Shown: positions 1 to 44,728 of the stretch, piece after piece
Layout of the letters: every line of letters starts with the position of its first letter
Numbering within the stretch: position 1 is the stretch's first letter
Virus record (IMG/VR): IMGVR_UViG_2563366942_000012
DNA: 46,106 nt
From: a virus
Taxonomy: Duplodnaviria; Heunggongvirae; Uroviricota; Caudoviricetes
Reading direction: 5' to 3' (one strand)
Made by a program: the position numbers and the translations under genes
Notes under the pieces: generated by a model
The model's database searches: none
Told to the model about the DNA's origin: nothing
Seen by the model: only the letters and a program-made list of their open reading frames with translations

Positions 1-1131
1 TCAAATGACCAGTTTTTTCCATTCCTTACCGCGTGCGTCGTTGTAAATATCGGTCATTTTTTGATTCGAATGGCCTAGCAAAATTTTGGTATCAACCCCC
101 TGCTCTCTGAACAATCGCTCTGATAAAGATCTCTGCTCATGGAAAGAGGGAGGGGTGCCATTAGCACGCCAGTTGTAATCCACAGAATCCCGGGCTTTTT
201 TAAATGCAACGGTTAATGTTGCTGGCTTAACCATCCCGCCGCGCTTAGCTGTCCCTTTCGCGTGATGGTGGTGCAATAGCCACGGACTAAGAACGCAATC
301 GCGGCAGGATGACACCACATCATCTAGGGTGAGATTTAATTTATCGCAACGCAGAGCCAGAGGGATGGCAATCCGGGTTCCTGTTTTTTGCTGTTCGACA
401 TGAAGATAACCATCCCGGATATCCGAAAATTGCATTTTGCAAATATCTGAAAGGCGCTGGCCTGTCATCAGTGCCAGCAGCATACCGCGCTGTAAAAAGT
501 AACCATCCTTTTCCGCTGCGTTATAAATCATCATCCACTCATCAAAAGTCAGTCGCTGTCTTGATATCCGCACCTGCGGTTTTTTTGCCGATTCTGCAGG
601 GTTAAAGCCTGGCGGGACATCGCCCGTTTGCTGAGCTTCCCGGAAAACATCGATCAGTACTTTCCTGAAAATTTGTCCCATTCTGTTATGTCCTCTGGCC
701 TTGTACTCTTCCAGTACTGATACCACATCTTTTACGGTTATGGCATCTAACGGTCTGGTGCCAAAACGTTCATCAAATACCCTGAGAGGGGCCGCTTTCT
801 GTTTCAGCGTGTTGAGTTTGATCTCGCCGTTTTCATATCTTTCCTGTTGAATTTTTCTGTAATTATTCAGAAAAATGGTAACGGTTGATGAACCGCCGGT
901 ATCACTAATAATTTTCTCCTGCAGACTGAGCATTTGTTCCATTTGCTGCCGGGCAAGACGGCTGTTCGCTTCTGCTGCAATAGTTTCTGCCAGTTTCTGG
1001 TCAATACTGCCGAGACCGTGATTTTTGCCTGTTATGGGATGCCTGTAACGCCAGTAAACTTTGTTATTTCTTTTGTCAAAATACGGAGATAATCCCGGAA
1101 CATCGGTTTTATATTTTCGCGGGCGCGCCAT
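1..1131 (-). CDS. int: Phage integrase (tyrosine recombinase)
   Basis: 376 aa ORF at prophage edge, overlapped at its 5' end by an excisionase-like ORF; C-terminal region typical of tyrosine recombinases; GAGGA Shine-Dalgarno 6 nt upstream of ATG. Confidence 0.85.
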   Translation of the reverse strand: MARPRKYKTDVPGLSPYFDKRNNKVYWRYRHPITGKNHGLGSIDQKLAETIAAEANSRLARQQMEQMLSLQEKIISDTGGSSTVTIFLNNYRKIQQERYENGEIKLNTLKQKAAPLRVFDERFGTRPLDAITVKDVVSVLEEYKARGHNRMGQIFRKVLIDVFREAQQTGDVPPGFNPAESAKKPQVRISRQRLTFDEWMMIYNAAEKDGYFLQRGMLLALMTGQRLSDICKMQFSDIRDGYLHVEQQKTGTRIAIPLALRCDKLNLTLDDVVSSCRDCVLSPWLLHHHHAKGTAKRGGMVKPATLTVAFKKARDSVDYNWRANGTPPSFHEQRSLSERLFREQGVDTKILLGHSNQKMTDIYNDARGKEWKKLVI

Positions 1132-5858: not shown

Positions 5859-6278
5859 TTAAGAGGCTTTTTGTTTTTTCTTTCGTGCTAACTCTTCGTA
5901 AATTGCATTGTACTTCTGTTTTTTCTCTTCAAGAGTTTTTAAAAGTTCATCTGTCTCACTGTCAGGGAGCTCGTCCAGAAGGTCAATGATGATTTTTTGT
6001 CTTGGATTTAACTCCTGATAGAAACGTACCTGTCCACTTTCTTCTGTATCCTCTCCCAAAAGATAGGTTGGTGTTGTTCCTATTAGTGTTGCTAATTCCC
6101 TTAATTTCTCCCGGCGAGGAATTGTTTCGCCATTAAACCATTTGCTAACCGCTTTTGGTGTTAATTTCATTCGACGGGCAATTTCTGCCTGCCTTCCATG
6201 TTGTTCATAACCAGCGTTTTCACAGGCTAGCGCAAGCCTACTGGCGAACTCTTTACGCGCTTTATCTTCATGAACCAT
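5859..6278 (-). CDS. cI/DicA-like prophage repressor (HTH-XRE)
   Basis: 139 aa; N-terminal helix-turn-helix (SRLALACENAGYEQHGRQAEIARRMKLTPKAVSKW); divergent from a Cro-like gene; no obvious Shine-Dalgarno, possibly leaderless. Confidence 0.8.
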   Translation of the reverse strand: MVHEDKARKEFASRLALACENAGYEQHGRQAEIARRMKLTPKAVSKWFNGETIPRREKLRELATLIGTTPTYLLGEDTEESGQVRFYQELNPRQKIIIDLLDELPDSETDELLKTLEEKKQKYNAIYEELARKKKQKAS

Positions 6279-6284
6279 AAGTTC

Positions 6285-6350
6285 AATGATATTCGCTCTT
6301 GAATGTACTGTCAGTTCTGTTATAGCATGTACTCAAAGTTCACATTGTGA
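6285..6350. promoter_or_regulatory. Divergent immunity promoter/operator region (OR; PRM/PR analogue)
   Basis: Intergenic region between divergent repressor and Cro-like genes with repeated ATGTACT operator-like half-sites and TTGAAT / TATAGC promoter-like hexamers. Confidence 0.5.
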
Positions 6351-6357
6351 GGGTGAT

Positions 6358-6612
6358 ATGAACCAGAAAACACTTGAAGATGTAATCAAAACTGTTCGCG
6401 TTGCTGTTGTGGCCGACGTTTGTGGTGTCAGCCAAAGAGCAATCTATAAATGGATGGATAACGGAAAATTGCCTCGCACAGAATATACCGGCGAAACAAA
6501 TTACGCTGAAAAAATCGCTCTTGCATCAAACGGATTATTTTCTGCCGATGCAATTTTAACTATTGGCAGGAATAAAACTACTACGAAAAAGCTGATGGGA
6601 GTTGATTCATGA
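6358..6612 (+). CDS. Cro/YdaS-like HTH regulator
   Basis: 84 aa from ATG with GAGGG Shine-Dalgarno; HTH segment VADVCGVSQRAIYKWMDNGKLP; stop overlaps start of next gene (ATGA). Confidence 0.7.
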   Translation: MNQKTLEDVIKTVRVAVVADVCGVSQRAIYKWMDNGKLPRTEYTGETNYAEKIALASNGLFSADAILTIGRNKTTTKKLMGVDS

Positions 6613-7034
6613 AAATCAAGCATGAACACATCCGCATGGCGATGAATGCCTGGGCGCATCCGGACGGCGAAAAAGTACCGGCTGCGAAAATTACCAAAGC
6701 GTATTTCGAGCTGGGAATGACGTTCCCGGAACTGTATGACGACAGCCATCCGGAAGCCCTGGCCCGTAATACCCAGAAAATTTTCCGTTGGCTGGATAAA
6801 GACACCCCTGATGCTGTTGAAAAAATGCAGGCTCTGTTACCGGCGATCGAAAAGGCGATGCCGCCTTTGCTGGTGGCCCGTATGCGCAGCCACAGTTCTG
6901 AATATTACCGTGAGATCGTCGAACGGAGGGATCGGCTGGTGAAGGATGTCGATGATTTTGTTGCGTCAGCGGTTGTTTTGTATGACCAGATGAATCGCGG
7001 CGGCCCGGCAGGGAATGCTGTGGTGATGCACTAA
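6609..7034 (+). CDS. YdaT-like protein (CII-position protein of Rac-type immunity regions)
   Basis: 141 aa beginning MKIKHEHI, matching my recollection of Rac YdaT; translationally coupled to the Cro-like gene. Confidence 0.55.
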   Translation: MKIKHEHIRMAMNAWAHPDGEKVPAAKITKAYFELGMTFPELYDDSHPEALARNTQKIFRWLDKDTPDAVEKMQALLPAIEKAMPPLLVARMRSHSSEYYREIVERRDRLVKDVDDFVASAVVLYDQMNRGGPAGNAVVMH

Positions 7035-7056
7035 AAGCACGGTGTTCGGGGGGGTT

Positions 7057-8019
7057 ATGAGCAGCAAGCTTCATGGTCTTGTCTGGGAAGGGTGCGCCTT
7101 CACCGGCATGATCTTATCCAGGGTGGCGGTTATGGCCCGTCTTGCAGACTACAGCAATGACGAGGGCGTGTCATGGCCTGCCATTGAAACTATCCGGCGT
7201 CAGATCGGTGCAAGAAGTGAATCCACAGTGAAATCGGCTATTGCAGAACTGGCGAAAGAGGGCTGGCTGACGAAGGAAGAGCGTAAGGTCGGTGGGCGTA
7301 ATGTAAGCAATATCTATCGGCTTAATGTGGAAAAACTCGAAGCAGCTGCGGCGGCGGCGCGTGAGTCATATAAACCGAAAAGAAAAATTAGCCCGGCAAA
7401 AAATGACCCGTTAACAGTTGACCCGTCAAATATTGACCCCTCAACGGTTGACCCGTCAAATTTTGATGGATCAACTGTTGATAAAAAACTGCCGATTAGG
7501 GGGGCGATGATTGACCCCGATCCGTCAGTATTAAAACCTGATCCGTCAGATAAAAGATCTTCTTGTCCGGACGCTTCGCAACCGGACCCGCAGACGGCTG
7601 AACAGGATTTTTTAACCCGACACCCTGACGCGGTTGTGTTCAGTGCGAAAAAACGCCAGTGGGGAAGTCAGGAAGATTTGGTGTGCGCACAGTGGATCTG
7701 GGGACGAATCGTGAGTCTTTACGAGCAGGCGGCCAGCTATGATGGCGAGATCACTAGACCGAAAGAACCCAACTGGACAGCATGGGCCAATGACGTTCGC
7801 ACAATGCGGATGCTGGATGGCAGAACTCACAGACAAATTTGTGAAATGTTTGGGCGTCTCCAGCGGGATTCGTTCTGGGTAAAAAACATCATGAGTCCGG
7901 CAAAACTCCGGGAAAAATGGGATGAACTGGTTATCCGCCTGGGGCGTTCGCCTGCGCAGCGTTGCGTGAATCACATTTCTGAACCGGACACTGAAATACC
8001 GCCGGGATTCAGGGGGTGA
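7057..8019 (+). CDS. Replication initiation protein (O-like, N-terminal winged-helix DNA-binding domain)
   Basis: About 320 aa from ATG at 7057 (GGGGGG Shine-Dalgarno); N-terminal HTH; internal DP(L/S)(T/N)VDPSN peptide repeats encoded by DNA iterons; followed by a DnaC-like gene. Confidence 0.75.
   Translation: MSSKLHGLVWEGCAFTGMILSRVAVMARLADYSNDEGVSWPAIETIRRQIGARSESTVKSAIAELAKEGWLTKEERKVGGRNVSNIYRLNVEKLEAAAAAARESYKPKRKISPAKNDPLTVDPSNIDPSTVDPSNFDGSTVDKKLPIRGAMIDPDPSVLKPDPSDKRSSCPDASQPDPQTAEQDFLTRHPDAVVFSAKKRQWGSQEDLVCAQWIWGRIVSLYEQAASYDGEITRPKEPNWTAWANDVRTMRMLDGRTHRQICEMFGRLQRDSFWVKNIMSPAKLREKWDELVIRLGRSPAQRCVNHISEPDTEIPPGFRG
7402..7490. repeat. Iteron array (candidate phage replication origin) inside the O-like gene
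   Basis: Five to six tandem copies of a roughly 15 bp unit (consensus GTTGACCCGTCAAAT) followed by an A-rich stretch. Confidence 0.6.
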
Positions 8020-8025
8020 CGTGTC

Positions 8026-8772
8026 ATGAAAAACATTGCGGCAGTTGGGGTTCTTGAACGTATTCGCAGACTTGCACCACAGGGGTCGGTTCCACCGTAC
8101 CGGACGGTGGAGGAGTGGCGGGAATGGCAACTTGCTGAAGGACGAAAACGCAGCGAGGAGATTAACCGCCAGAATCGCCAGTTGCGGGTGGAAAAAATCC
8201 TGAATCGTTCGGGCATCCAGCCTCTGCACAGCAAATGCTCGTTTGCAAATTATCAGGTGCAGAACGACGGGCAAAAATACGCGCTGAGCCAGGCCAAATC
8301 CATAGCTGACGAACTGATGACCGGGTGCACGAATTTTGTGTTCAGCGGTAAAACCGGCACCGGGAAAAATCACCTTGCAGCGGCGATGGGCAACCGGCTG
8401 ATGGTGAAGGGGCGCAGCGTGATTATCGTCACCGTGTCTGACGTCATGAGCGTGTTGCATGACAGCTACGACAACGGCAAATCCGGGGAAAAATTTTTAC
8501 AGGAGCTTTGCGGGGTTGATTTGCTGGTCCTGGATGAAATAGGCGTTCAGCGGGAGACGAAAAACGAGCAGGTGGTATTGCACCAGATAATTGATCGCCG
8601 GACAGCATCACTGTGCAGTGTCGGGATGTTAACAAACCTGAATCATGCCGCAATGAGTACGCTTCTTGGTGAGAGGATTATGGACCGCATGACCATGAAC
8701 GGTGGTCGATGGGTGACGTTTAACTGGGATAGCTGGCGTCCAAATGTCAGCAATATGAGGGTTGTGAAGTAA
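8026..8772 (+). CDS. DnaC-like helicase loader (AAA+ ATPase)
   Basis: 248 aa; Walker A GKTGTGKNHLAAA, Walker B LLVLDEIG; immediately downstream of the O-like gene. Confidence 0.85.
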   Translation: MKNIAAVGVLERIRRLAPQGSVPPYRTVEEWREWQLAEGRKRSEEINRQNRQLRVEKILNRSGIQPLHSKCSFANYQVQNDGQKYALSQAKSIADELMTGCTNFVFSGKTGTGKNHLAAAMGNRLMVKGRSVIIVTVSDVMSVLHDSYDNGKSGEKFLQELCGVDLLVLDEIGVQRETKNEQVVLHQIIDRRTASLCSVGMLTNLNHAAMSTLLGERIMDRMTMNGGRWVTFNWDSWRPNVSNMRVVK

Positions 8773-8793: not shown

Positions 8794-9564
8794 ATGGAAA
8801 CCGTATCTGACGCACTGAAAGCACTGAAAAAAGCCTCTTCACATGTGGTGGCAGCTCGCCTTGGAATCAGTCGTGAAGAGGCTGTCAACGAGCTGTGGGA
8901 ACTCAAAAGAAAAGGCGTCGTTGATAAAACTGGTCACACCTGGTTTCTGGCTGGCGAAGGTGAATCCCGGGTAACCGAAGAGCGGCCAGTAAAATCTGAA
9001 GCACAGGATATGCTGACCGGGGAGGTCGAACAAAAAGTTACCGCAGACATGATGATTGAGTTTATCGGTCAGGATGGGGCTAAAACGTGTGAGGAACTGG
9101 CGGGTAAGTTCGGTGTCAGTACTCGCAAGGTTGCTTCCACGCTGGCGGTGGTAACCGCAACGGGGCGGCTGGCACGCGTTAATCAGAACGGTAAATTTCG
9201 TTACTGCATGCCGGGCGATAATTTACCAGCAGAGCCGAAAGCCGCGCTGGTAACGGAAAGTGATGGTAAGGCCTTTCCTCAGCCAGCAGGTGCTGCGTTA
9301 CCAGGCCGGGAAGCCGCAACACAGGAAGAAATTAAAACAGAAACTGTGGCGGACATTGTGCAGTCGTTGCCATCGTTTACCGAAACGCAAGCAGATGAGC
9401 TGATTTTTCCGTCCCTGCGCAGGGCAAACCTGGCGCTGCGCAGGGCGAAAAGTGATGTTCAGAAGTGGGAGCGAGTCTGCGCCGCGCTGCGGGAGCTGAA
9501 CAAGCACCGGGATATTGTTCGACAGATTACTGATTCTTCCCGCCGTGTTGTATCGGAAAAGTGA
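8794..9564 (+). CDS. Hypothetical protein with two winged-helix-like segments
   Basis: 256 aa ORF with GGAGGA Shine-Dalgarno; no catalytic motif recognised. Confidence 0.5.
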   Translation: METVSDALKALKKASSHVVAARLGISREEAVNELWELKRKGVVDKTGHTWFLAGEGESRVTEERPVKSEAQDMLTGEVEQKVTADMMIEFIGQDGAKTCEELAGKFGVSTRKVASTLAVVTATGRLARVNQNGKFRYCMPGDNLPAEPKAALVTESDGKAFPQPAGAALPGREAATQEEIKTETVADIVQSLPSFTETQADELIFPSLRRANLALRRAKSDVQKWERVCAALRELNKHRDIVRQITDSSRRVVSEK

Positions 9565-10005
9565 TTGCCGGAGGCGCTTATGGCAAAAGTATTTACACAA
9601 GAAGAGCGGGAAAAAATTAAAGGGCAGGTTGTTGAACTTGTACGTCTGAGCGGTCGCGAGACGTTACGGCAACTGGAAGCCAAGACAGGTGCGACAAGAT
9701 ATCTGATGAGCGTTCTTGCCAGAGAGCTGGTTGCCAGTGGCGATGTATACGACTCTGGTTACGGGTTATTCCCGTCTGAACAGGCGCGTAAGGACTGGCA
9801 AAATGCTCGCAAAAAACTCTCAAGGGCAAAGGTGAAGAAACCTGCAGTGGTTGATCCGGACCTTATCTGGTCGTTACCAGACGGCGAAATACGCCGCTAC
9901 GACAGGCGCCTGAATATAATCTGTCGCGAGTGCCGGAAGAGCGAAGCTATGCAGCGTGTACTGGCATTTTATCAAGGAAATGTTAGGTATTTTAGACGTT
10001 ACTAG
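9565..10005 (+). CDS. Hypothetical protein
   Basis: 146 aa ORF contiguous with the upstream gene; start may be the ATG at 9580. Confidence 0.45.
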   Translation: MPEALMAKVFTQEEREKIKGQVVELVRLSGRETLRQLEAKTGATRYLMSVLARELVASGDVYDSGYGLFPSEQARKDWQNARKKLSRAKVKKPAVVDPDLIWSLPDGEIRRYDRRLNIICRECRKSEAMQRVLAFYQGNVRYFRRY

Positions 10006-10158
10006 ATTAAAGAGCATTAGTTCAGATGTGAATTGACATTTTCATGGCGCAGGGTAGAGCCAGCGTGGTTGTCCGCTTTGCGTCAAAACCAGATATTACC
10101 AGATTTAGACATATATTCCCGATAGACCTGCTCTGATGCTACACTCTGTGCTATTTTC

Positions 10159-10845
10159 ATGACCCCAATAAAAATATTTATGACTATTGCTGATTTCAAA
10201 CGGCCTAAATTGGAGCTCCCAAACGGGGCAAACAAACTACTACTGCACTCTTGCTGTGCTCCATGTTCCGGTGAAGTGATGGAGGCGCTTCAGGCCTCGG
10301 GAATCGACTACACCATCTTTTTCTACAACCCGAACATTCATCCTCAGAAAGAGTATTTAATTCGTAAGGATGAAAATATTCGCTTTGCTGAACAACACGG
10401 CGTGCCGTTTATCGATGCTGATTACGACACCGACAACTGGTTTGAACGTGCCAAAGGAATGGAATGGGAGCCTGAGAGGGGGATCCGTTGTACCATGTGT
10501 TTTGACATGCGTTTTGAGCGGACAGCGTTGTACGCTGCTGAAAATGGTTTCAGTGTGATCAGCAGTTCACTGGGCATTTCACGCTGGAAAAATATGCAGC
10601 AGGTTAACGAGTGTGGGCGGCGAGCTGTTGCGCATTATCCGGGTATGGTGTACTGGGATTATAACTGGCGCAAGCAGAGCGGCTCGTCCCGTATGATTGA
10701 AATCAGCAAGCGCGAAAAATTCTATCAGCAGGAATATTGTGGCTGTGTGTATTCTCTGCGCGATACCAATCTACACCGCAAATCTCAGGGACGCCCTCTT
10801 ATCAAAATTGGCCAACTCCACTACGGAAAAGAAGAGAAGGAGTGA
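10159..10845 (+). CDS. queH: QueH-like epoxyqueuosine reductase (DUF208 family)
   Basis: 228 aa with the HSCCAPCS cysteine motif near the N-terminus plus downstream Cys residues (CTMCFD, CGCVYS) characteristic of QueH; preceded by a 150 bp intergenic region; start codon uncertain (no clear Shine-Dalgarno). Confidence 0.6.
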
Positions 10846-11082
10846 TTTTATGGATCACCTTTCTGATTGATTTCATATTGGCGAGGTGACGTGAGTTAAG
10901 TAGAATGGCTGCGGGTGCTTGAGGCTATCTGTCTCAGGCATGAACACTGAAAGGCAGATAGAGAAAAGCCCCAGTTAACATTTCGCGTCCTGCAAGACGC
11001 TTAACATTAATCTGAGGCCCAATCTATGTCTCACAAATGTAGGTTAGCCTCTTACGTGCCGAAAGGCAAGGGGAAGCAGGCT

Positions 11083-11238
11083 ATGAAGCAGCAAAAGGCG
11101 ATGTTAATCGCCCTGATCGTCATCTGTTTAACCGTCATAGTGACGGCACTGGTAACGAGGAAAGACCTCTGCGAGGTACGACTCCGAACCGGCCAGACGG
11201 AGGTCGCTGTCTTCACAGCTTACGAACCTGAGGAGTAA
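11083..11238 (+). CDS. hok: Hok/Gef-family type I toxin (HokD/RelF-like)
   Basis: 51 aa MKQQKAMLIALIVICLTVIVTALVTRKDLCEVRLRTGQTEVAVFTAYEPEE matches the Hok family; in-frame upstream extension resembles a mok-like leader ORF. Confidence 0.8.
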   Translation: MKQQKAMLIALIVICLTVIVTALVTRKDLCEVRLRTGQTEVAVFTAYEPEE

Positions 11239-11299
11239 GAGACCTGGCGGGGGAGAAATCCCTCGCCACCTCTGATGTGTCAGGCATCCTCAACGCACC

Positions 11300-11335
11300 C
11301 GCACTTAACCCGCTTCGGCGGGTTTTGTTTTTTTC
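11300..11335 (+). terminator. Rho-independent terminator after hok
   Basis: CCCGC-TTCG-GCGGG hairpin followed by TTTTGTTTTTTT. Confidence 0.65.
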
Positions 11336-11405
11336 TGGCATTCTGGTTTACAATTCGCACGTCAGCCTGAACACCTGACACCTGCTGCGCCAGCAGAGAA
11401 AACAG

Positions 11406-11678
11406 ATGGCGCACAAAACCAAATTTCACAATTCTGATACCGACCTTGCCATCCGGCATGGGCGGCGTTCACACGCATTTAAAACCGACTGGTACCAACA
11501 CCCACCATGTACTGAAGAACAGGCCGAATGGCTAATTCATAACTACCGCAGACGCGGATACGAGATTAAGAAAGCCCTCAGCCTCGATTATCGTCACTGG
11601 ATAATCTCCGTCAGGCTTCCTTACTCTGAACGCCCACCGCGTCCGTCCCGCACATTCCAGCAACGCATCTGGAGGTAA
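11406..11678 (+). CDS. Hypothetical nin-region protein
   Basis: 90 aa ORF immediately upstream of the next gene (stop 11678, start 11680). Confidence 0.45.
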   Translation: MAHKTKFHNSDTDLAIRHGRRSHAFKTDWYQHPPCTEEQAEWLIHNYRRRGYEIKKALSLDYRHWIISVRLPYSERPPRPSRTFQQRIWR

Positions 11679-11679
11679 C

Positions 11680-12735
11680 GTGCGGGTATTACTTCGACCT
11701 GTTCTGGTACCGGAACTCGGGCTGGTGATCGTTAAGCCGGGCCGTGAATCCATGCCGGTATTCCACAATACCCGGGTACTGGTGGAGCCGGAACCGAAAA
11801 GCATGCGTAATCTGCCGTCCGGGGTCGTTCCTGCCGTTCGCCAGCCGCTGGCGGAGGATAAATCATTACTGCCATTTTTCAGCGACGAACGAGTGATTCG
11901 TGCTGCTGGTGGCGCTGGCGCATTGTCTGACTGGTTACTGCGCCATGTTAAATCCTGCCAGTGGCCACACGGCGATTATCACCACAGTGAAACCGTCATT
12001 CACCGTTATGGTACCGGCGCAATGGTGTTGTGCTGGCACTGCGACAACCAGCTGCGCGACCAGACCTCCGAATCACTCGGGCAACTTGCTCACCAAAACC
12101 TGTCTGCATGGATGATTGACGTCATACGCCATGCAATGAATGGCTCGCAGGAACGGGAATTATCGCTGGCTGAATTATCCTGGTGGGCGGTCCGCAATCA
12201 GGTGGCGGACGCGCTACCGGAAGCGGTATTACGTCGTTCGCTGGGGTTGCGTGCGGAAAAAATCCGCTCAATGTACCGTGAAAGCGACATCGTACCGGGA
12301 GAGCAGACCGCCACCAGCATACTGAAGCAGCGCACAAAAAATCTTGCGCCGCTGCCTCACGCCCACCAGCAAAACCCGCCACAGGAAAAGACGGTGGTCA
12401 GCATTGCCGTTGATCCGGAGTCACCGGCTCAGTATCTCCAGCGCCAGAAATCACAACGGGAAGAGATGCCTGTATACACGCGTTGGGTAAAAACGCAGAA
12501 ATGCATGACGTGTGGCAATCAGGCAGATGATCCGCATCACATCATTGGTCATGGACTGGGAGGGATGGGAACAAAGGCTGATGATTTGTTTGTTATTCCG
12601 CTGTGCCGTAAATGCCATAGCGAACTACACGCCGGGGTAAAAGATTTTGAAGAAAAACACGGCAGCCAGCTGTTGTTGCTGATTCGTTTTTTAATGCACG
12701 CGAGAAATTCGGGTGTTCTGAAGTGGAAAGCATAA
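11680..12735 (+). CDS. Nin-region protein with C-terminal HNH/zinc-finger nuclease-like motif (DUF968-like)
   Basis: 351 aa; C-terminus has CxxC...HHIIGHG...CRKCH; immediately upstream of rusA. Confidence 0.5.
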   Translation: MRVLLRPVLVPELGLVIVKPGRESMPVFHNTRVLVEPEPKSMRNLPSGVVPAVRQPLAEDKSLLPFFSDERVIRAAGGAGALSDWLLRHVKSCQWPHGDYHHSETVIHRYGTGAMVLCWHCDNQLRDQTSESLGQLAHQNLSAWMIDVIRHAMNGSQERELSLAELSWWAVRNQVADALPEAVLRRSLGLRAEKIRSMYRESDIVPGEQTATSILKQRTKNLAPLPHAHQQNPPQEKTVVSIAVDPESPAQYLQRQKSQREEMPVYTRWVKTQKCMTCGNQADDPHHIIGHGLGGMGTKADDLFVIPLCRKCHSELHAGVKDFEEKHGSQLLLLIRFLMHARNSGVLKWKA

Positions 12736-15447: not shown

Positions 15448-15523
15448 CGGCCCTTTAGCTCAGTGGTGAGAGCGAGCGACTCATAATCGCCAGGTCGCTG
15501 GTTCAAATCCAGCAAGGGCCACC
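15448..15523 (+). tRNA. tRNA with CAU anticodon, ileX-like (tRNA-Ile2, lysidine) rather than tRNA-Met
   Basis: 76 nt cloverleaf: acceptor GGCCCTT/AAGGGCC, anticodon loop CUCAUAA, T-loop TTCAAAT, 3' CCA; close to my recollection of E. coli ileX. Confidence 0.8.
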
Positions 15524-15530
15524 ATCACAT

Positions 15531-15607
15531 ACCGCCATTAGCTCATCAGGAAAGAGCGCCAGCTTTCGAAGCTGGTTGCGCGGAGTTCGGGTCCCCGAAG
15601 GCGGTCC
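15531..15607 (+). tRNA. tRNA-Arg-like (UCG anticodon), with non-canonical features
   Basis: 77 nt cloverleaf with anticodon loop UUUCGAA and 3' CCA, but one mismatch each in acceptor and T stems and an unusual T-loop TTCGGGT; middle tRNA of the Stx-phage-style ile-arg-arg trio. Confidence 0.55.
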
Positions 15608-15620
15608 ATTATCTGTATCC

Positions 15621-15697
15621 TGCGTTGTTAGCTCAGCCGGACAGAGCAATTGCCTTCTAAGCAATCGGTCACTGGTTCGAATCCAGTACAACGCGCC
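15621..15697 (+). tRNA. tRNA-Arg (UCU anticodon)
   Basis: 77 nt; acceptor GCGTTGT/ACAACGC, anticodon loop CUUCUAA, T-loop TTCGAAT, 3' CCA. Confidence 0.85.
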
Positions 15698-15710
15698 ACA
15701 CTTATTTTCC

Positions 15711-44059: not shown

Positions 44060-44728
44060 CTATTTTTTCCCTGAAGCGGAAAACATTACTACAGTACCTT
44101 GAACCTTGGTTTTAACATTCTCGAAATGCTCTGAGAGTATATGTGTTAAGCCTTCTTCGGAATCTTTTGTGTTTGAAAAGATGCCTTTCTGATTGTAAAT
44201 GCGCATCAGTTTTTGACCGAAGCTATTGTGCACAACTCCATCGCCAAGAATTGTGGCTCCGTATAGAGTTCCATCGTCAGTTAAGGCCTGCGCCGCATTG
44301 CGTATTACACAGCTTTTTGTAGATATATTTCCAGGCAGGCAGTGAAGAAGGTAAAACATGGAAATGGAATCAAATTGACCATGTAACGTCGCGGGATAAG
44401 GTTCAAAAACATCATGGCTAATTTTATGTTTAATTTTTGATTCCCCAGCCCTTGTAGATGCCGCGTTCAGGCTAGCTTCGTTCAAATCCATTAAAGATAT
44501 CAGACTACTCTCAGGTACGTGAGTAAGGTAAAACCCAGTTCCAACACCAATATCCAGATGGTTGTTACCTAAATGTTCCAGAAAGTGTGGAAGAAGGTGT
44601 TCCTTTGTAGGACATCCCCATGCAAGCCGATTTGATACTCCCAAAACCCACCAGTCATAAAGCTTTAGGGTAAGTGGTGTGTAAATTTTAGCCCCATCAT
44701 CTGTGTTTTTTTTCATTAATTTCACCAT
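44060..44728 (-). CDS. Class I SAM-dependent methyltransferase (cargo gene)
   Basis: 222 aa with AdoMet-binding motif I DIGVGTGFY and acidic motif-II-like LMDLNE; AT-rich codon usage unlike the flanking phage genes; flanked by direct repeats of the tfa 3' end. Confidence 0.65.
   Translation of the reverse strand: MVKLMKKNTDDGAKIYTPLTLKLYDWWVLGVSNRLAWGCPTKEHLLPHFLEHLGNNHLDIGVGTGFYLTHVPESSLISLMDLNEASLNAASTRAGESKIKHKISHDVFEPYPATLHGQFDSISMFYLLHCLPGNISTKSCVIRNAAQALTDDGTLYGATILGDGVVHNSFGQKLMRIYNQKGIFSNTKDSEEGLTHILSEHFENVKTKVQGTVVMFSASGKK

Follow-up and report, generated by a model that had tools for sequence, protein, structure and literature searches.

The locus and the queH gene

The window analysed here is the complete IMG/VR virus record IMGVR_UViG_2563366942_000012, a stretch of 46,106 nucleotides that corresponds to a lambdoid prophage integrated at ompW; positions are those of the window unless another locus is named. 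A gene on its plus strand, queH, is predicted to encode epoxyqueuosine reductase of the cobalamin-independent type. It is probably a captured housekeeping gene that lambdoid phages keep as a functional accessory gene, and that would allow queuosine synthesis to be finished without vitamin B12.

The open frame extends from 10159 to 10845 on the plus strand and encodes 228 residues. In an alignment with prophage and chromosomal orthologues, the ATG at 10180 is invariant, whereas that at 10159 is not conserved. The true start is most likely ATG 10180, which gives a product of 221 residues, and RefSeq annotates this shorter frame as QueH. Residues are numbered below according to the 228-residue frame unless stated otherwise. 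The gene and its signature motif are as follows.

10180–10845, plus strand: queH coding sequence, 221 residues and stop, supported by the Pfam profile, the match to Thermotoga maritima QueH, the predicted fold, the conserved ATG and RefSeq

10273–10287, plus strand: codons of the C-C-A-P-C motif, with Cys32, Cys33 and Cys36, which are Cys25, Cys26 and Cys29 in the 221-residue product

A previous, sequence-only reading of the stretch had pointed to a CCAPC-type cysteine motif and to further conserved cysteines in a 228-residue protein. Frame and motif are both present, and the further cysteines are found at positions 111, 114, 194 and 196, within the family motifs RCxxC and YCGC.

A third candidate start, Met41 (10279), is where the PHROG model begins. 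It was rejected, as residues 14–40 are conserved with the chromosomal orthologues and hold three invariant cysteines. This codon is preceded by a Shine-Dalgarno-like GGTGA, and many phage annotations evidently begin there. The family concerned, PHROG 3217, is labelled "unknown function" and models residues 41–228 only. Phage copies are filed under this label because, with the start called at Met41, the catalytic CCAPC motif is lost and the relationship to QueH is obscured. In phage genomes, annotation pipelines should move the start upstream to ATG 10180 and give the gene its name.

Assignment to the QueH family

The window protein matches the Pfam QueH profile (PF02677) with 221.2 bits (cut-off 23.5) and E = 1.3e-65, over profile positions 1–174 of 175. 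This search against the DUF208/QueH family had been proposed together with the original reading, and the full-length match that it returned is far beyond chance. The entries for T. maritima QueH are the only solved relatives by sequence, 7lc5 being matched at E = 5.6e-21 over residues 27–203. An AlphaFold model was built on 35 homologues, with a predicted local distance difference test (pLDDT) of 78.6 and a predicted template modelling score (pTM) of 0.81. The top five Protein Data Bank (PDB) matches of the predicted fold are all T. maritima QueH, including 7lc7 and 7lc5, with a template modelling (TM) score of 0.81 normalised to the target and a root-mean-square deviation of ~3.2 Å over ~181 columns. 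Solved QueH has an adenine-nucleotide alpha-hydrolase-like core, and the next folds, those of LarE and TtuA (alpha-hydrolase-fold), have E-values about a million-fold weaker than those of the QueH structures.

Conservation was examined by aligning the window protein with 57 family members, consisting of 56 diverse cluster representatives and T. maritima QueH. All columns conserved in at least 90% of the members are kept in the window protein. The invariant non-cysteine residues thus retained are P35, N59, E65, Y66, R69, E106, R110, R118, K144, Q191, G195 and S199, and the conserved cysteines are C32, C33, C36, C111, C114, C194 and C196. All of these cysteines except C36 align to cysteines of T. 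maritima QueH and are invariant in the 57 members; the members had been chosen by their CC.P and C.C motifs, and only C111 and C114 are independent tests of invariance. The sequence-only reading had staked the identification on the conservation of the catalytic and cluster-binding residues of QueH, and all family-invariant residues are kept.

The remaining cysteine belongs to the first motif, where Cys32, Cys33 and Cys36 align to Cys9, Cys10 and Asp13 of T. maritima QueH. Mutant PDB entries exist at aligned T. maritima sites, namely 9d86 (C9S) and 9dco (D13N). The position after CCAP is Cys in 99 of the 103 representatives with an H-x-C-C-x-P motif and Asp in 3; in the 57-member alignment, the counts are 55 Cys and 2 Asp. 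Cys36 is not a real deviation from T. maritima QueH, because Cys is the majority form in the family. In QueH, the six invariant cysteines (CC...CxxC...CxC) are taken to hold the metal centres, a [4Fe-4S] cluster and an additional iron, with the position after CCAP as a seventh ligand position. Statements on metal ligands draw on the titles of the PDB entries and on the alignment only.

The window protein differs by one residue from WP_000150294.1, the RefSeq "epoxyqueuosine reductase QueH". The window gene is a standard member of QueH, neither a new family nor a new variant, and the biochemical identity of its product as QueH is very likely. The initial proposal of a prophage-encoded QueH in a nin-like region is borne out by the full-length Pfam match, by T. 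maritima QueH as best match in both sequence and predicted fold, by the invariant residues and by the RefSeq name. The gene identity was already known, since RefSeq names QueH in about a thousand complete Escherichia coli genomes.

Distribution in E. coli and in phages

The gene was found in 1032 of the 5426 complete E. coli genomes, or roughly one in five; 984 of these matches cover at least 80% of the query, and the DNA is at least 99% identical in 704 genomes. Among 40 evenly sampled E. coli matches, all 38 that cover queH are annotated as an intact "epoxyqueuosine reductase QueH", with no pseudogene. The gene for the cobalamin-dependent enzyme, queG, is present in all 5426 genomes, so that queH constitutes a second, non-homologous route to the same reaction, and QueG and QueH occur in the same cell in ~19% of the genomes. 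The earlier statement that enterobacteria normally use QueG is therefore correct for E. coli, but many Enterobacterales have a chromosomal queH.

The allele of the window encodes Ser at residue 167 of the 221-residue product (G167S, which is G174S in the 228-residue frame; codon 10678–10680). This residue is Gly in the common allele, in T. maritima QueH and in each of the 34 close relatives aligned, and 67% of the wider family likewise have Gly. The Ser167 allele was found on 14 contigs, versus at least 1000 for the common allele WP_000150294.1.

A copy with 100% protein identity is present in Escherichia albertii, where the DNA is 98.4% identical over 2.5 kb. E. albertii was considered as the source of the window and rejected, since the match to E. 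coli MS 21-1 is better, at 99.9% over 25 kb. The isolated 45-kb phage HannyBb carries queH with 94.7% amino-acid identity, annotated as "hypothetical protein", and was the one true match in a megablast search against 50,697 phage records. In IMG/VR, 190 viral contigs encode a relative of the window QueH. Matches by tblastn to "Acinetobacter phage MD-2021a" (records of 328–378 kb) and to short unannotated faecal "Bacteriophage sp." contigs were not used, as the phage nature of these records is doubtful.

Origin and selection

The closest chromosomal QueH proteins are those of Scandinavium, Kluyvera and Enterobacter, with about 88–91% identity, followed by those of Symbiopectobacterium, Pantoea, Erwinia, Serratia, Photorhabdus and Providencia with 78–86%. 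The chromosomal genes have housekeeping neighbours: icd, rluE and chorismate mutase in Enterobacter; a short-chain dehydrogenase and a metallo-beta-lactamase-fold gene in Scandinavium; and tmcA, purC, dapE and bamC, a housekeeping block, in Providencia (loci L003 and L002, 3265–6645). In the last case, queH adjoins tmcA, which is another gene for the modification of a tRNA wobble base. Among 80 genome loci, only that of E. albertii has the phage neighbours in common with the window.

Identity among the prophage alleles is 96–100%. A neighbour-joining tree groups them in a single clade whose sister is Scandinavium, with Kluyvera adjacent, within the chromosomal genes of Enterobacteriaceae. The nesting of a monophyletic prophage clade among chromosomal genes points to a single capture of queH from a chromosome. 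Selection was analysed with the alleles of the window, O157 Z563, DA33137, E. coli C, HannyBb and CE2050. The ratio of non-synonymous to synonymous substitution rates (dN/dS) is 0.04–0.09 among these prophage alleles, with dS up to 0.44, which indicates that queH has been under strong purifying selection throughout its phage history.

Upstream region and expression signals

The upstream gene ends with a TAG at 10003–10005, which leaves a spacer of 153 bp to ATG 10159 and of 174 bp to ATG 10180. Two features are distinguished in this region.

10006–10179, plus strand: intergenic spacer and untranslated leader, from the DUF977 gene to queH, with no Shine-Dalgarno sequence and no terminator

10137–10145, plus strand: extended -10-like element TGCTACACT, ~35 nt before ATG 10180, with a single occurrence in the window

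The sequence-only reading had described an intergenic region of 150 bp with promoter-like hexamers. The spacer is indeed of this size when measured to ATG 10159, but no acceptable -10 hexamer pairs with the exact TTGACA at 10033–10038, which is missing from other prophage contexts and forms no promoter. The conserved element is the one at 10137–10145. Chromosomal queH of Scandinavium, Kluyvera, Enterobacter, Symbiopectobacterium, Erwinia and Pantoea has a TACA[CA]T box, often after TGn, equally far from the ATG, in the forms TGCTACAAT, TGCTACACT or xxCTACACT; the remaining DNA upstream of these genes is unalignable. The TGCTACACT box may be a weak promoter of queH itself that arrived with the gene, and expression in a lysogen would thereby be plausible. 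Homology among the prophage contexts starts at 10064 or 10131, hence only the proximal part of the upstream region travels with queH.

In a scan of 9500–11700, no terminator was found between the upstream early genes and queH, and read-through from the early-right promoter is therefore expected in lytic growth. No terminator-like site was found between 10846 and the hok/sok locus described below. Rfam, searched at a permissive E-value over 9500–12000, gave no riboswitch, such as preQ1, before queH.

Prophage context and neighbouring cargo

The gene order was taken from the RefSeq annotation of the near-identical prophage of E. coli MS 21-1, which is 99.9% identical over the first 25 kb of the window and 96.5–97.5% identical, with small unaligned gaps, over the rest. 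The left end consists of the integrase gene (1–1131, minus strand), followed by those for excisionase, a RecE-like exonuclease, dicB, a repressor and Cro-like pair, and a YdaT-like protein. A helix-turn-helix protein, an ATP-binding (DnaC-like) protein, DUF1627 and DUF977 are encoded before queH, and hokD, an open reading frame (ORF) of 90 codons, DUF968, RusA and antiterminator Q after it. Beyond antiterminator Q come a DNA methyltransferase, three tRNAs, lysis genes, terminase, and lambda-type head and tail genes. The label "nin region" given to the locus at first sight is fair, as queH lies between replication-type genes and those for DUF968, RusA and antiterminator Q.

The place of queH is fixed. 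The gene is directly 3' of the DUF977 gene in the window, CE10, MS 21-1, DA33137 and O157 Z563; in E. coli C and HannyBb, a short fragment of a methyltransferase gene lies between the two; and in CE2050, the context upstream of queH is cut off at the origin of the record. A DUF977 match was found within 1.5 kb upstream of queH in 80 of 80 IMG/VR proviruses.

Downstream, two further features are present.

10913–11239, plus strand: hok/sok type I toxin-antitoxin locus (sok/mok leader and hokD), separate cargo that is not part of queH

11307–11324, plus strand: terminator-like hairpin after hok, the first one downstream of queH, with a 7-bp stem containing 5 G-C pairs, then a run of T

A hok toxin gene had been predicted to follow queH, and this is confirmed by the Rfam sok model, which scores 120.5 bits at 10913–11088, and by the position of hokD at 11084–11239 in the annotation of the near-identical prophage. 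An isrK-like Rfam match at 11247–11328 scores 27 bits, below the gathering score of 50, and overlaps the hairpin after hok; it probably reflects only the terminator stem-loop.

The gap between queH and the 90-residue ORF and DUF968 gene (10846–11405 in the window) is a site where cargo is swapped among lambdoid prophages; in compared loci, the cargo lies at 6049–7688 (L011), 6025–8035 (L012) and 1730–2068 (L010). The site holds hok/sok in the window, CE10, MS 21-1, E. coli C and HannyBb, and in 56 of the 80 IMG/VR proviruses. In O157:H7 Z563 and 21 of the 80 proviruses, it is occupied by an NgoMIV-type restriction-modification pair, in DA33137 by a complete Kiwa system (PADLOC, KwaA E = 1e-101 and KwaB E = 3e-159), and in CE2050 by a DUF1971 gene. 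With the Kiwa pair of DA33137 matched as a control, no PADLOC defence model matched queH, DUF977, the 90-residue ORF or DUF968.

Other features of the prophage are remote from queH. A tRNA cluster at 15449–15698, downstream of the DNA methyltransferase gene, comprises a tRNA with anticodon CAU (Met according to ARAGORN, Ile according to RefSeq), Arg-UCG and Arg-UCU, none of which is a queuosine substrate. A gene for a class I S-adenosylmethionine-dependent methyltransferase (44060–44728, minus strand) lies on the opposite strand within the tail-fibre region and is likely another accessory insertion. Integration occurred at the 3' end of ompW (1–1131 and the right end of the window; 1306–1944 and 47641–47766 in L006), and MS 21-1 has a duplicated ompW fragment at the far end of the prophage. 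The neighbourhood, with yciB, yciC and ompW on one side and yciE, yciF and yciG on the other, resembles the site of the Rac prophage in K-12.

A link with Holliday junction resolution was considered, since DUF208 was once tied to this process by gene neighbourhood (PMC3403352) and rusA is nearby. It was rejected, as the proposal predates the QueH assignment and as queH and rusA are separated by variable cargo and the DUF968 gene.

Proposed role of the prophage QueH

Cobamides are not synthesised de novo by E. coli. The species makes epoxyqueuosine-tRNA and needs cobalamin for the last step to queuosine; epoxyqueuosine builds up in queG knock-outs (PMC4646009). Four enzymes of E. coli depend on a cobamide, QueG among them (PMC11841063), and QueH is the iron-dependent, non-orthologous replacement of QueG (PMC5372724, PMC9508795). 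The two may coexist: Staphylococcus aureus has QueG and a QueG-independent QueH, which are redundant and have different cofactors and expression profiles (PMC13443448). Proteins named for both QueG and QueH are also found in Enterobacter ludwigii and Pantoea dispersa, so that sister genera natively possess the pair of enzymes that E. coli acquires by lysogeny.

It is proposed that queH and the proximal part of its promoter region were acquired in a single event by an ancestor of these lambdoid phages, the donor being the chromosome of a relative within the Enterobacteriaceae near Scandinavium, Kluyvera or Enterobacter. The gene would then have been kept by strong purifying selection between the replication genes and antiterminator Q. 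Expression may come from its own promoter in lysogens and from read-through in lytic growth. Its product, an iron-sulfur enzyme that needs no cobalamin, would reduce epoxyqueuosine-34 to queuosine on tRNA-Asn, tRNA-Asp, tRNA-His and tRNA-Tyr, and would thus free queuosine completion from the B12 supply, in a lysogen or infected cell, when B12 is scarce. That queuosine synthesis could become B12-independent through the prophage QueH is a sound inference from the family. The chances that sparing B12 is what benefits the lysogen are about even.

Several observations weigh against this proposal. A two-hexamer sigma-70 scan of 9500–11700 gave no plus-strand promoter upstream of queH and did not detect TGCTACACT. 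There is no Shine-Dalgarno sequence before ATG 10159 or ATG 10180, so expression may be low; the lack is not a sign of decay, because the chromosomal queH genes of Scandinavium, Kluyvera and Enterobacter likewise have an A-rich leader without one. No NCBIfam family matched the window protein, and the RefSeq name QueH must therefore come from another rule. The window allele has a rare Gly-to-Ser change. No enzymatic or expression data for prophage queH were found in the sources searched. We know of no phenotype that separates epoxyqueuosine from queuosine and would explain a selective benefit.

Alternative explanations

The best of the alternatives accepts a true QueH and differs in whom it serves. 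The enzyme would be made by delayed-early read-through from the rightward early promoter, top up queuosine during lytic growth and tune the decoding of NAU/NAC codons in phage genes. The gene is on the same strand as the early-right operon and within it, with no terminator separating it from the upstream early genes; the isolated phage HannyBb keeps it; purifying selection acts within the phage lineage; and queuosine has been reported to affect the translation of NAU codons in E. coli (PMC10570037). However, an infected cell has most of its tRNA modified beforehand and replaces little of it in a short lytic cycle, the conserved promoter-like box, a legacy of chromosomal genes, suggests autonomous expression, and the tRNAs of the prophage itself (CAU, Arg-UCG and Arg-UCU) are not queuosine substrates. 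A use by the phage and not by the lysogen is unlikely, although it is compatible with the proposal of a captured gene that finishes queuosine without B12.

A broader version of that proposal is slightly less probable still. Phages would keep queH because, in a gut with competition for B12, it makes a difference whether host tRNA carries epoxyqueuosine or queuosine, and because finishing queuosine without B12 gives the lysogen or the phage a measurable advantage in fitness or in conflict. This advantage could come from the decoding of NAU/NAC codons or from nuclease resistance of tRNAs with GUN anticodons. If this were true, queH would be the first phage-borne conversion gene that acts in tRNA hypermodification, and would offer a natural way to study what the last queuosine step is for.

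A role in conflict proper would require that anticodon nucleases attack the four GUN-anticodon tRNAs to a different extent when these carry queuosine instead of epoxyqueuosine, or that queH acts together with the adjacent defence cargo. The gene does border a slot with hok/sok, an NgoMIV-type restriction-modification pair or a complete Kiwa system, and selection maintains it although the host has a queG of its own. Yet it matched no PADLOC defence model, and chromosomal genes with an evident housekeeping role are ~90% identical to it. The cargo next to queH changes from one prophage to another whereas queH persists, so that no fixed partnership exists, and no tRNA nuclease that discriminates epoxyqueuosine from queuosine is known to us. 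This explanation is very improbable.

Even less credible is an inert passenger, acquired by illegitimate recombination and without function in phage or lysogen. The missing Shine-Dalgarno sequence and canonical promoter would suit such a passenger, as would the fact that queG already covers the reaction when B12 is present. It is contradicted by the low dN/dS at a substantial dS; moreover, the invariant residues and all sampled copies are intact, and the leader is of the same kind as in the chromosomal orthologues.

Least likely of all, to the point of being negligible, is a 7-deazaguanine DNA-modification pathway in which the protein acts on phage DNA or on a free deazapurine: phages are known to modify DNA with enzymes of queuosine precursors (PMC6884629), but this explanation is contradicted by gene content, the RefSeq annotation of the near-identical prophage listing no DpdA/TGT-type transglycosylase and no folE, queD, queE, queC or queF (not every small ORF was separately scanned with profiles), and QueA forms the substrate epoxyqueuosine on tRNA, the protein is almost a copy of the chromosomal QueH of the tRNA pathway, and the same paper reports no QueA, QueG or QueH in the deazaguanine-modifying viruses that it analysed. 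The suggestion in the sequence-only reading that queH might serve a phage-specific deazaguanine pathway is therefore unsupported.

Significance

A full-text literature search found no publication on phage- or prophage-borne QueH in E. coli, and a 2019 survey of deazaguanine genes in viruses found no QueA, QueG or QueH (PMC6884629). The object itself is annotated and its setting is under-described. This setting, in which prophage queH is under strong purifying selection next to a fully conserved B12-dependent queG, is under-appreciated. If QueH is active in lysogens, the statement that E. coli needs B12 to finish queuosine becomes strain-dependent, and the queG/queH pair would offer a clean natural experiment on the purpose of the epoxide-to-alkene step.

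Comparison with known systems

Like the window prophage, phage clusters for 7-deazaguanine (preQ0/archaeosine) place enzymes of queuosine metabolism on phage genomes. These clusters centre on the transglycosylase DpdA and preQ0 synthesis genes and were reported to be without QueA, QueG or QueH (PMC6884629), whereas the window prophage has queH alone.

The morons of lambdoid nin regions are also accessory, lie between conserved phage genes and are present only in some related prophages. The G+C fraction of queH is 0.48, slightly lower than that of its flanks (0.52 for the window), and a promoter of its own is possible. Unlike these morons, queH has no terminator of its own, and its putative promoter is proposed from conservation only. 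The "typical moron arrangement" of the first reading is thus only partly borne out: the gene is accessory and came with a conserved -10-like element, but it lacks a terminator of its own, and the promoter-like hexamers, most plausibly the TTGACA at 10033–10038, form no promoter.

QueG is predicted to catalyse the same reaction as the window QueH on the same tRNA substrates. It has an unrelated fold and needs a cobamide (PMC4646009), and its gene belongs to the core chromosome, whereas queH is accessory and phage-borne.

The closest system is QueH itself (PF02677, formerly DUF208 or COG1636; T. maritima structures 7lc5, 7lc7 and 9deu). The window protein has the same full-length domain and predicted fold, the same six invariant cysteines and the other invariant polar residues of the family. 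It differs from T. maritima QueH by a Cys at the position of Asp13 and by the Gly-to-Ser change, and from known QueH by the location of its gene, on a lambdoid prophage and not in a housekeeping locus.

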